64,000 bases of DNA from an uncultured Bacilli bacterium (GTDB lineage: Bacteria > Bacillota_I > Bacilli_A > RF39 > UBA660). The notes beneath the pieces are model-generated. The model saw nothing but the letters and a program-made list of their open reading frames with translations, searched no databases and was not told the origin of the DNA. The stretch lies in the NCBI GenBank assembly GCA_963929435.1, contig CAWVIV010000006.1, positions 2,535 through 66,534 of the forward strand. The letters are read 5' to 3'. Within the stretch, counting starts at the first letter, position 1, and each line of letters opens with the position of its first letter. Positions 55,563 through 58,361 of this stretch are shown one piece after another. The translations under genes were made by a program, and so were the position numbers.

Positions 55563-56000
55563 TTAAATCATATAATTATGAAATATTAAAGCACCATTTA
55601 AAGGATTCTTAAAGTAATCTTTTTTAAACCCATTTAATAGACAAACTTATGAATAATCAATTCCACAAAATGCACAAAATATTTTAAATCCTTTAATTCT
55701 AAAACTATAATCCTTCCAATACTTACAATCTCTACTAAGTAAATAAGCAAGATTTTCAGGATCATAATAATTATGTTTCTCTCGTATTATTTTATCAGGT
55801 TCTTCCATATTAACAATGTTTTCATCCTTTTCGTCAAAATAAACTTTCCATTTTTCTTAAAGATTTAAATCAACAATTTTACCTAAAGAATCTATAATAT
55901 TTTTAATATCTCCATCACTAAAATAACCATCTTCAAAAAGACCTAAAGGTCTAGTAACTCTTAAAGAAAGAGCGACACTGCAATATAATGCTCCACCCAT
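55563..56000 (-). pseudogene. Hypothetical gene interrupted by two in-frame TAA codons
   Basis: A 146-codon frame (MGGALYCSVAL...HNYMI) starts 7 nt after the preceding stop and contains two internal stops. Confidence 0.5.
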
Positions 56001-56007
56001 AATTAAC

Positions 56008-56274
56008 CTACATTAATCTTGCAATTTGAGCTTCATTTAAGCCAGTAGCTTGCATTATACTTTCTTTAGGTATACCTATTTCAAGAAGATTCTTAGCAAT
56101 AGATTTTTCTCTTTCTTTAGCACCTTGTTTAATGCCCTTTTTAATGCCCCTTTTCTCTCCTAACATTTCTTCTTCTTTAAGACTATTCATCATTTTTTCC
56201 ATCTCTTCCGCTTCATCATAAAACCCTACTGTATTAATATCAAGACTTAATCTCTTTGAAGCACAACCTTCCAT
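56008..56274 (-). CDS. Stand-alone Rpn C-terminal module (RpnS-like small protein)
   Basis: Own AGGAG RBS. Aligns with the last ~95 aa of 56291-57232 (GFYDEAEE, GIKKGIKQG, KSIAKNLL, IM.ATGL). Confidence 0.75.
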   Translation of the reverse strand: MEGCASKRLSLDINTVGFYDEAEEMEKMMNSLKEEEMLGEKRGIKKGIKQGAKEREKSIAKNLLEIGIPKESIMQATGLNEAQIARLM

Positions 56275-56290
56275 TAACTCAACATCTCCT

Positions 56291-57232
56291 TTACATCAAC
56301 ATTGTTATTTGATTCTTATTTAACCCTGTCGCTTTCATAATATCTTTTATTGGCATACCCATACTAAGAAGATTTTTAGCAATAGAATTTTTTTCATTAC
56401 TAACACCTTGTTTAATTCCTTGTTTAATTCCTTGTTTAAGACCTTGTTTAAGGCCTTGTTCTTTAGCAGTAATTTTTATACTATTTTCTATTCTTCTTCT
56501 TTCCTCTTCTTCATCATATAGTCCAATAGTATATGCATCATTAGTTAATCTTTTTAATTCTTTAGCAACTTCCATAAGTTCTTCGTCTCCTTCCGCTAAT
56601 TTGTCAATCTCATCAACTTTTGTTAAAGTTAATATCACTAGTTCTTTTTCTAATTTACTTAAATTTAATCCTCTATCATACTTTTCTCTTATTAATTTTA
56701 AATTAACATATATTTTACCCCATTTATCACTTTCTATTATTCCATATTTATCTCTTGATTTAAATTCTAATAGATTCTCCTTATTTAAGAAACAATAAAA
56801 GTTATTAATATTTATCTGTATTACTTTAGGCATACTAGCATAACTTTTCGCTTTTCTTATTAAATCATTTTTTATTTTACCTAAATAAGCATCATTTCTC
56901 TCAATTAAGCCATTCCATTTTCTATTATTAAACTCAAAGTTAAAAACATAGCCTTTTGTTTTAAATAAAACATCTGATACTTTACCTTTTTCTAAAACAT
57001 TATCTATTACATACTCAGTATTCATTTCTTTATAAGTATTTAATATTAACTCTTTAGATACACTTGTTAATTTAGATGTAGTATCTGCTCTATATTTAGG
57101 ACAGTTTCTCATAATAGCTTTATATATACAGTCATAAGTAGCAGGAACAACTTCTCCTTTTCTTCTTAACTCATTTACTATTTCTTCAAATCTTTTCTTT
57201 GTAATAGACAAGGAAATTCCTCCTTTCTGCAA
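56291..57232 (-). CDS. Rpn-family / PD-(D/E)XK nuclease-like 'transposase' protein
   Basis: YDCIYK near the N-terminus, SDVL...FNFEFNN nuclease core, VIQININNF, C-terminal KQG repeats and IAKNLL...ATGL. Confidence 0.8.
   Translation of the reverse strand: MQKGGISLSITKKRFEEIVNELRRKGEVVPATYDCIYKAIMRNCPKYRADTTSKLTSVSKELILNTYKEMNTEYVIDNVLEKGKVSDVLFKTKGYVFNFEFNNRKWNGLIERNDAYLGKIKNDLIRKAKSYASMPKVIQININNFYCFLNKENLLEFKSRDKYGIIESDKWGKIYVNLKLIREKYDRGLNLSKLEKELVILTLTKVDEIDKLAEGDEELMEVAKELKRLTNDAYTIGLYDEEEERRRIENSIKITAKEQGLKQGLKQGIKQGIKQGVSNEKNSIAKNLLSMGMPIKDIMKATGLNKNQITMLM
56405..56461 (-). repeat. 12-bp tandem repeat (~4.8 copies) encoding (L/I)KQG
   Basis: GAACAAGGC CTTAAACAAGGT CTTAAACAAGGA ATTAAACAAGGA ATTAAACAAGGT on the minus strand. 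Confidence 0.9.
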
Positions 57233-57519
57233 TACTTATAGCATAGCTTTAAAATGATTGCAAAAAGGTAATTTTTAAAATTCAAAGAAAATAGGCTCTC
57301 AATTTAATATTTTCTCTAGGAGAATTTTAAATATTCATTTCAAAAAAACTCTCAATTTTAAAAATCTATACTTTTTTAAAAAAATTAAATTTACCTCCTT
57401 TCCCCATCTTTTATGTATCGCCTCTTATATCTATAATGTATCATGATAGATAGATTGTGTCAATATATTTTTGATATATGTTTGAAACAATTAAAAGAAG
57501 AGAAAGTATTCCTTACGTT

Positions 57520-58361
57520 TCTTCTTTATTTGATTCTTCTTATAAACTAATATTTCTTGCTGATAGATGGTTTAATTCTACTACTATTTTGCAACATATT
57601 GACTCTTTAGGTCATACTTATTGTATTAGATTAAAAAGAAGGACATAAAGTTTGGAAATTTTTAGATGAAATAGAGCCTTACAAATATCACTCTAAATCT
57701 TTTAATGATATCCTACTTACTGATAACTCTTATAAAACTAATATTGTTATAAGTAAAACGGATGGTGTTAGTGAACCCTGGATTATTGTTACTAATGGTT
57801 CTACTAGAAGAGCCATTAAAGATTATGGTTATCGTTTTGGTTCTATTGAATCAGTATTTAAAAATCAAAAATCTAATGGCTTTTATATTGAATCTGTTGT
57901 TAAAGCAGACTTAGATTATTTTACTTCTATGTATACTCTTGTTTGTTTTTCTACTCTTTATTTAACTATATTAGGGGCAGACTATTCTAAAAATAATAGT
58001 TGTTATAAAACTGTTAAAATTACTACTCATAAATATTTTATAGAAAATGGTATAAGAGTAAAGAAAAGAGTAATGTCTTTATTTAATACAGGACTTACTC
58101 TATTTCATCTAGCTTTTAATTCCTCGAAATACATTAGGCTCCCCTTTTCCTTTACTCTCTATGATATTTAAAAAACTTAAATAACCAAAGTTCTTTTTGT
58201 CGTGGTTTAATTTATACTAAAAAGTGTAACTTATGATACCAAAAGTTACACTTTTTCTATTTTTATCATCATTGTTACCAACTCATACACTATTGGTCGT
58301 ACTTTTATATCTATTTTCCCTTTATTTTTCAACACTTTTACTAAAACTGTCCGTTACTCAG
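57520..58361 (+). mobile_element. 5'-truncated IS4-like DDE transposase remnant
   Basis: LADRWF, YCIRLK, EPWIIVTN, YGYRFGSIESVFKNQKSNGFYIE; stop at 58171. The right end near 58361 is a guess. Confidence 0.65.

Follow-up and report, generated by a model that had tools for sequence, protein, structure and literature searches.

An Rpn-family nuclease gene with a predicted internal antitoxin start and a downstream, heterologous RpnS-type gene in an uncultured Bacilli bacterium

Why would a nuclease gene that appears to encode its own antitoxin be followed directly by a second, free-standing version of the antitoxin-like module, and is that second module matched to its neighbour? The question is raised by a locus within a window of 64,000 nucleotides (nt) from an uncultured Bacilli bacterium of the RF39 lineage (GenBank assembly GCA_963929435.1, contig CAWVIV010000006.1), in which a long gene of the Rpn family, rpnL, contains a predicted nested gene, rpnS, and is followed by a gene for a protein of 88 amino acids (aa), rpnSs. 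In Escherichia coli, internally initiated RpnS products bind to the toxic long form and inhibit it, and how many 4-residue repeats are present determines their specificity (Zhong et al. 2023, PMC10400941), and RpnP2 protects against T-even phages (PMC10400941). Our analysis indicates that the locus is very likely a 'gene-within-gene' toxin-antitoxin or defence module of this kind, accompanied by a heterologous spare small gene of the rpnSs class. Positions given below are those of the window as a whole, and rpnL, the internal start, the junction and rpnSs all lie on the minus strand. The principal features are:

57219..57223, minus strand: ribosome-binding site of rpnL, GGAGG, with a 7-nt spacer to TTG 57211, read directly
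56291..57211, minus strand: rpnL, gene for an Rpn-family PD-(D/E)XK nuclease, 306 aa from TTG 57211
56573..56592, minus strand: predicted internal start, comprising AAGGAG (56592-56587), an 11-nt spacer and ATG (56575-56573), from nucleotide-level conservation
56291..56575, minus strand: nested rpnS, predicted 94-aa product, an HTH_Rpn_C domain composed of one long helix bearing the repeats and two short ones
56405..56458, minus strand: four-residue repeats QGLK QGLK QGIK QGIK QG in the long helix of rpnL/rpnS, copy number hypervariable among strains
56275..56290, minus strand: 16-nt junction AGGAGATGTTGAGTTA, its AGGAG (56290-56286) abutting the rpnL stop, with an 11-nt spacer to ATG 56274
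56008..56274, minus strand: rpnSs, free-standing RpnS-type gene, 88 aa, heterologous to the neighbouring rpnL
56122..56160, minus strand: repeat region of rpnSs, GEKR GIKK GIKQ G, from the alignment of small homologues
56030..56200, minus strand: putative recombination tract in rpnSs, differing from the orthologous loci of two related genomes, G006 and G008

Direct reading of the sequence reproduced the coordinates and elements listed in a first-pass annotation of this DNA, with the exception of the likely start of rpnL. The longest reading frame (56291..57232, 313 aa) begins at TTG 57232, yet TTG 57211 is the likelier start, because it is preceded by GGAGG at a 7-nt spacing and coincides with M[AP]ITKKRF, the N-terminus of 120 database homologues. 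The gene ends at TAA 56293-56291. ATG 56575, which follows the GGAG core of the internal site (56590-56587), is in frame with rpnL and corresponds to M213 in the 306-aa numbering, or M220 in the 313-aa frame; the 94-aa product that would start there contains (K-Q-G-L/I)x4.

The assignment of rpnL to the Rpn nucleases, also made in the first-pass annotation, is upheld by profile matches, conserved catalytic residues and the RpnS-type tail with its 4-aa repeats. In a Pfam search the product matched PDDEXK_2 (PF12784) at 29 bits, above the cut-off of 27.4, and it matched TIGR01784 ('Rpn family recombination-promoting nuclease/putative transposase') at 49 bits (E 7e-13, profile positions 33-270 of 273). 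An exhaustive homologue search with RpnL returned 2016 cluster representatives at E <= 1e-3, and its database homologues carry PF12784 together with PF27070. Across an alignment of 67 homologues (25-90% identity), residues D80 and E93 never vary, and conservation of D27 and N95 is 90% or more. Going by the context and order of the motifs (TxDxxFK ... D ... ExN, with adjacent strands at 81-85 and 88-95), and not by direct alignment, these residues appear to correspond to D11, D63, E82 and Q84 of RpnA, mutation of which abolishes RpnA activity (Kingston 2017, PMC5350276). The AlphaFold2 (AF2) model of RpnL is confident, with a mean predicted local distance difference test score (pLDDT) of 90.6, and its best fold matches in the Protein Data Bank (PDB) are nucleases of the PD-(D/E)XK type, among them McrC (E 2.3e-4), Nt.BspD6I, AF1548 and bunyavirus endonucleases, all with low TM-scores of 0.2-0.4. 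Two details sit less comfortably with the assignment, namely that the TIGR01784 score falls just under that profile's cut-off of 52.1 bits, and that the third catalytic motif is E-x-N, not E-x-Q, with Asn in place of Gln throughout the clade. Judging from motifs and model together, we consider that rpnL encodes a PD-(D/E)XK nuclease whose catalytic D/D/E(x)N residues appear intact.

The C-terminal part of RpnL resembles the antitoxin domain of characterised Rpn proteins in both fold and pattern of variation. In the AF2 model (306-aa numbering) a low-confidence linker spans residues 221-240 and helices span 234-283 (50 residues), 288-295 and 299-305, with the internal Met placed in a short helix directly before the linker. 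Searching with phmmer, the only PDB sequence match of the 94-aa product was 7TH0 (E 0.009), the E. coli RpnA-S crystal structure, with similarity limited to about 35 residues of the tail. The same structure was the top Foldseek match of the AF2 model of the 88-aa protein (probability 1.0, target-normalised TM-score 0.78, root-mean-square deviation 0.5 A), over 37 columns at 40% identity, the E-value being 0.12 as the match is short. Precomputed Pfam annotation of the homologues names this domain PF27070 HTH_Rpn_C, which covers it instead of DUF4351 (PF14261), for which a Pfam search gave no match at E up to 1. PADLOC returned only weak matches (the repeat helix to 'C3a178 putative invertase'), which we judged uninformative. 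Close RpnL homologues have lengths of 294, 298, 302, 306 and 310 aa, and the distance from the GLYD motif to the IAK motif takes values of 31, 35, 39, 43, 47 and 55 among homologues; this stepping by 4 residues is the hypervariable 4-residue repeat signature of the Rpn family. For example, the rpnL of G008 differs from the one described here only by a single additional repeat, and the small-gene homologues align with indels of 4 or 8 residues. At least 8 different cassettes of terminal helices are present among close homologues of rpnL, and these are in circulation among the small genes as well.

The internal start at ATG 56575, proposed in the first-pass annotation, is very probably genuine and is strongly supported by nucleotide-level comparison. 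The sequence A[AG]GGAG, 11 nt and ATG is invariant in all 18 long genes of subfamily 1 (from the same genome and its congeners, about 30-100% identical), and neighbouring third positions vary. The Gly codon of the site is GGA in each of these 18 genes, as against 40% of Gly codons genome-wide. All seven genes of subfamily 2 have GAGGAGG or AAGGAGG, 11 nt and GTG; the peptide at their internal site is a different one (N-E-E-A-L-K-V-V), and GTG accounts for 4.8% of Val codons and GAG for 21.6% of Glu codons in the genome analysed here. A third type of long gene has GGAGG, 11 nt and ATG. Among internal in-frame ATGs genome-wide, GGAG occurs at a spacing of 11 in 0.6%, and at spacings of 5-12 in 1.9%. 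The extended anti-Shine-Dalgarno consensus is AAAGGAGGTGA, which the internal site GAAGGAGATGA matches beyond its core. Furthermore, free-standing copies in several lineages begin exactly at the internal start codon, with homology from the Shine-Dalgarno (SD) sequence onward.

Several observations weigh against this interpretation of the internal site. The 11-nt spacing lies in the tail of the SD spacing distribution of this genome, which peaks at 7-9. The repeats begin about 38 residues past the internal Met, compared with 8-20 residues in characterised RpnS proteins (PMC10400941), and E. coli RpnA-S (49 aa) aligns with only the last 40 or so residues of the 94-aa product. Conservation of the Met and the E-G-D motif could also be due in part to constraints on the protein. 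We also considered a nearer internal start, from which a product of E. coli size (about 50 aa) would result, and rejected it because the stretch from M220 to the repeats contains no ATG, GTG or TTG in frame.

A further argument for the internal site had been that rpnSs begins at the homologous Met with an SD sequence at the same 11-nt spacing. That the two Met codons are homologous is confirmed, with a 1-codon indel shortly after them, but the equal spacing does not amount to independent support. In a DNA alignment with the Rpn gene of the congener G004 and with the resident rpnL, the rpnSs leader AGGAGATGTTGAGTTA-ATGGAAG aligns with the Rpn internal site GAAGGAGATGAAGAGTTA-ATGGAAG, and the spacing is therefore inherited (the G004 site reads GAAGGAGATGAAGAGTTA-ATGGAAGCAGCTAATGAATTAAAGAGATTAAGT and the rpnSs leader TAAAGGAGATGTTGAGTTA-ATGGAAGGTTGTGCT, a three-column gap and TCAAAGAGATTAAGT). 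Homology of the small gene starts at its ribosome-binding site, and the upstream stop codon abuts that site. The same junction is found in the long/small pairs of G016 (TATAGGAGATGAAAATTTA-ATG), G017 (TGTAGGAGATAAAGAGTTA-ATG) and contig C11 of the same genome (GTAAGGAGGCTACAATATT-ATG), as well as in the subfamily-2 pairs of G008, G010 and G015, while in E. coli K-12 the stop of rpnE and ypaA are separated by AAGGAGAGATTA, the same 12 nt as stand before the internal M244 of rpnE. Longer 5'-truncated forms of 97, 115, 131 and 139 aa also exist. Trimming has occurred repeatedly to exactly the SD and never past it, which is itself evidence that the SD/start pair is the functional unit. In every case examined, across two phyla, the duplication junction is flush between the stop codon and the SD.

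Where the small gene came from is indicated by its closest relatives. The 88-aa protein is 53% identical to residues 227-313 of RpnL in the 313-aa frame (E 1e-23, a similarity well above what chance would give), whereas its identity to the tail of another full-length Rpn protein, from G004, is 81%. We rejected a recent tandem copy of the resident rpnL tail as its source, given the higher protein identity to another lineage and a DNA identity to the resident tail that lies uniformly between 50 and 80%. In GLYD-to-IAK distance, rpnL (43) exceeds rpnSs (38). Together, the identities and the helix lengths bear out the proposal that this is a free-standing RpnS-type module, probably with a specificity different from that of the neighbouring RpnS. 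As to its integrity, public data contain more than 120 small homologues that are intact, most with PF27070 HTH_Rpn_C, the ratio of nonsynonymous to synonymous substitution rates (dN/dS) is 0.34-0.75 among six small genes, and a conserved rpnSs is present in G006 and G008 at the syntenic position beside uvrC.

Comparison with relatives suggests that mismatched helices are common between neighbouring long and small genes. Among 16 long/small comparisons the difference in helix length is 0 in six, of which three are copies of one locus (L047/L048/L049), +/-4 in five, +/-8 in two and +/-12 in two, with the difference of 5 between rpnL and rpnSs making up the remainder. The corresponding long and small GLYD-to-IAK distances are 43 and 35 in G006 and 47 and 35 in G008, where rpnL is essentially identical to the gene described here; the lengths of the long and small helices therefore do not co-vary. 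One extra repeat was enough to abolish neutralisation in the case of RpnC (PMC10400941), and most of the small proteins are accordingly predicted, from their sequences, not to neutralise their neighbouring RpnL.

Some observations do not favour an intact and functional rpnSs. Small homologues otherwise have GLYD-to-IAK distances of 31, 35, 39 or 43, and the value of 38 in rpnSs arises because of a 1-residue deletion (KEE-EML, at about residue 36-37, near 56164-56168) that no other small homologue has. In addition, contig C19 of the same genome carries a decayed sister copy of the small gene, and the gene next downstream of rpnSs is fragmented, so that decay of the 88-aa copy is also possible.

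We propose that ribosomes would start not only at the beginning of rpnL, but also at ATG 56575, giving a 94-aa RpnS. By analogy with what has been shown for E. coli RpnA, RpnB and RpnP2, RpnS would dimerise with the identical tail of RpnL via the repeat-bearing helices and keep the nuclease inactive, until phage infection released RpnL from it. The gap of only 16 nt, and the lack of any terminator-like site between rpnL and rpnSs in a terminator scan of the region, suggest that the 88-aa gene is co-transcribed with rpnL. It would be translated from an SD and start codon inherited from an Rpn internal start, possibly in a manner coupled to the translation of RpnL and RpnS, since its SD abuts their common stop codon. 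The gene itself would derive from the tail of another Rpn lineage. As its helix is 5 residues shorter and it ends in a different terminal helix-pair cassette, the 88-aa protein most likely fails to neutralise the RpnL beside it. More plausibly, it would be an orphan module of other specificity that neutralises a differently keyed RpnL, or serves as a recombination partner by which the resident pair is re-keyed, or both.

Other explanations for the 88-aa gene deserve consideration. It could encode a cognate second antitoxin, perhaps under regulation of its own, that would bind to the neighbouring RpnL and serve to increase or buffer the dose of antitoxin. Its position directly downstream on the same strand with no intervening terminator would fit this role, as would the common fold with its conserved SIAKNLL box and the fact that about a third of long/small comparisons in relatives are equal in helix length (e.g. 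L045, L047 and contig C1 of the same genome), and a commentary by Koonin, which likewise notes separate rpnSs genes, suggests decoupling for regulatory flexibility. Nevertheless, we consider a cognate role unlikely for rpnSs, with just 53% identity to the resident tail, a different terminal cassette, a helix that is not only shorter but out of the 4-residue register, the sensitivity of RpnC neutralisation to a single added repeat, and long and small helix lengths that vary independently in three genomes. A regulatory role, in which the chief function of the small protein (and possibly of RpnS) would be that of a helix-turn-helix (HTH) DNA-binding regulator of the locus and not that of an antitoxin at the protein level, is suggested by the Pfam name of the domain, by fold matches that come after RpnA-S (TrpR-like, DeoR and other HTH domains), and by the habit of many antitoxins of also regulating their own expression (PMC10400941). 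We regard this as highly improbable, however, as these HTH matches have E-values above 1, RpnA-S inhibits its toxin directly at the protein level in vitro (PMC10400941), and no operator-like repeats were seen upstream, albeit without a search aimed at them.

It is also conceivable that the 88-aa reading frame is a non-functional remnant of a 5'-truncated rpn gene, open by chance or because the truncation is recent. The longer truncated forms could be read as intermediates of such a process, the C19 copy has lost its SD and is frameshifted, the 1-residue deletion is unique among small homologues, dN/dS is only moderately low, and E. coli ypaA is marked as a pseudogene by RefSeq. Against this stand the intact frame and SD of rpnSs, the large set of intact small homologues with indels in codon or repeat units only, the truncations that end exactly at the SD in several independent lineages, the existence of arrays of two intact copies, and the detection of YpaA protein in E. 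coli (PMC10400941), all of which make a remnant quite unlikely. An orphan module of different specificity thus remains our preferred explanation of rpnSs.

How often small genes accompany long ones was surveyed in 130 loci from metagenome-assembled genomes resembling Onthousia. The survey yielded 58 solo long genes, 17 long-small pairs, two long-small-small arrays and one long gene with a mid-length module, and a long gene with a downstream same-strand small gene is found in G006, G008, G016, L045, L047 and L050. The first-pass annotation had suggested an antitoxin-array arrangement and a survey for tandem small genes; the two long-small-small loci show that arrays with two small genes do occur in relatives. 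A true array (L050:1586-3043 and L051, both on chicken-gut metagenome contigs from ENA) has a 299-aa Rpn gene and, after it, two small genes of 87 aa each, with gaps of 15 nt.

At the DNA level, comparisons of a long with a small gene, and of two small genes with each other, show segments of 100% identity adjoining segments of 40-60% identity. In L050, the long gene and the first small gene are 100% identical over the 3' 120 nt and 40% identical in the 5' part, while the two small genes are 100% identical over their first 195 nt, then about 55% identical, and end in different terminal cassettes. In L047, the mosaic pattern of long/small identity is reversed relative to L050. These mosaics, and the common pool of cassettes, indicate that long and small genes exchange segments by recombination, for which YDEAEE, the repeats and EKKSIAKNLL are the likely exchange boxes. 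In L047 and L020, two other loci from this genus, the downstream copy does cluster with its own upstream gene, unlike rpnSs.

The locus under study has apparently spread between species only recently. When positions 55970-57740 of the window are compared with L016 (G008) and L017 (G006), the rpnL-rpnSs block of about 1.7 kb has close to 100% DNA identity, whereas the flanking uvrC is about 90% identical among the same three species-level genomes. Differences inside the block are limited to the number of repeats in rpnL and to the tract 56030-56200, where sliding identity falls to 50-77%. A near-identical block beside a more divergent uvrC points to very recent horizontal exchange or a cassette sweep at a fixed site. 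We found no donor for the tract in the same genome (the assembly being 87.6% complete), in which the best paralogue is 53-55% identical.

That genome (G000; 1.5 Mb, 27.6% GC) contains about 10 Rpn paralogues, four of them with a downstream small module, including the decayed copy on C19. The latter (G000:C19:114672-114903; locus L004:1150-1560, minus strand) also starts MEGCA..., but has TGAGA in place of AGGAG, has lost the repeat block by deletion and is put out of frame by a 1-nt insertion. On contig C1 (G000:C1:34432-35758) a 284-aa Rpn gene is followed by a 131-aa partial duplicate of equal helix length, and on contig C11 (G000:C11:42677-43611) an N-terminally truncated Rpn gene of 213 aa precedes a small gene of 86 aa that has two repeats fewer. 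Two tandem small open reading frames of 142 and 73 aa, with HTH_Rpn_C-like C-termini (IAK...TGL...), lie on contig C7 (G000:C7:52144-52806, minus strand) beside a spoIVA-like gene with no nuclease domain nearby, and may encode orphan RpnS-type proteins outside any rpn locus.

A tentative extension of these observations is that the free-standing rpnSs genes of this lineage constitute a linked pool of specificity cassettes that re-key RpnL and RpnS together by gene conversion at conserved boxes, and that, between exchanges, they confer immunity to non-self RpnL. Should this be the case, three cassette segments (the leader, the repeat-bearing helix and the terminal helix pair) would move into and out of the toxin gene as in silent-cassette or orphan-module systems, and mismatched small proteins could meanwhile protect against horizontally arriving RpnL toxins of other specificity. 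Orphan toxin-tip and immunity cassettes after cdiA or rhs genes, and silent pilin cassettes, are likewise partial copies, either promoter-less or closely linked, that lie downstream of a full-length polymorphic gene and recombine with it. The proteins concerned are unrelated to Rpn, and the likeness is one of analogy only; the spare unit at rpnSs is the antitoxin-like module alone, and a donor role for it, as in silent-cassette systems, is suggested only by the DNA mosaics.

The arrangement of a long gene with an extra small gene has a precedent, as separate downstream rpnSs genes have been published, namely ypaA after rpnE and a copy after rpnC (Zhong et al., PNAS 2023, PMC10400941). In both rpnE-ypaA and rpnL-rpnSs, a long Rpn gene, with an internal start that is predicted in the case of rpnL, precedes a same-strand gene for the small C-terminal module only, and their junctions are built alike (TAA|AAGGAGAGATTA|ATG in E. 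coli, TAA|AGGAGATGTTGAGTTA|ATG here). YpaA has one more 4-residue repeat (EGKL) than RpnE_S, and the small proteins of both systems vary by such repeats. In contrast to rpnSs, which is closer to the G004 tail than to its neighbour, each downstream copy in E. coli clusters with the gene that precedes it, which indicates local duplication; such copies can also be lost through deletion or through fusion with the N-terminal domain (PMC10400941). The families likewise differ: the E. coli genes belong to Transposase_31/PF04754, with small genes assigned to DUF4351 in some species, whereas rpnL-rpnSs carries PDDEXK_2/PF12784 and PF27070, and its module of about 90 aa has some 40 extra N-terminal residues relative to the 49-61 aa of E. 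coli. In the E. coli K-12 locus (L131; NC_000913: 2356904-2358001), RefSeq labels ypaA a pseudogene and RpnE 'inactive', and the ypaA leader exactly copies the internal SD and spacer of rpnE.

Counterparts of the long gene that have been characterised by experiment are RpnA_L/RpnA_S of E. coli and the plasmid-encoded RpnP2, a toxin, intragenic antitoxin and anti-phage system. Common to them and rpnL are the PD-(D/E)XK residues, a three-helix C-terminal domain (7TH0), an internal SD sequence with a start codon, and hypervariable 4-residue repeats in the first helix; rpnL differs in having E-x-N for E-x-Q and in the longer stretch between internal Met and repeats. The Rpn protein of Clostridioides difficile, also from the Bacillota, has an internal start shown in E. 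coli and 4-residue repeat variation (PMC10400941), a likeness that we draw from its description.

The mechanism is not new, and the locus is a well-supported new example of the published RpnL/RpnS/RpnSs design. It extends the Rpn toxin with internal antitoxin, and its variant with a downstream small gene, to uncultured, small-genome Bacilli of the chicken gut that resemble Candidatus Onthousia. What our comparison adds to the 2023 paper is that downstream small genes are often heterologous to their neighbour or unlike it in helix length, and that long and short genes hold segments in common and appear to exchange them. Heterology, length mismatch and segment exchange are useful but incremental additions, which sharpen the question of the role of rpnSs into one of pairwise neutralisation tests.

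Two further features flank the locus:

57435..57463, minus strand: best promoter-like candidate ahead of rpnL, a TG-extended TTGACA-17-TACATT (weak evidence)
55647..56000, minus strand: gene fragments of 47 aa and 53 aa, from a gene of about 195 aa of unassigned function, by comparison with L050

A promoter consensus scan of the region was uninformative, with 15 promoter-like sites found against 13.5 expected in shuffles. The gene of about 195 aa, for which Pfam and PADLOC searches gave no match, is intact between rpnSs and uvrC in the metagenome locus L050 (L050:3051-3638), and is broken into pieces of 55 and 108 aa in G006 and G008. Just upstream of rpnL, on the plus strand, a 56-aa fragment (57478-57648) weakly resembles a DDE transposase (PF01609, E 0.038) and is a degraded insertion-sequence remnant.

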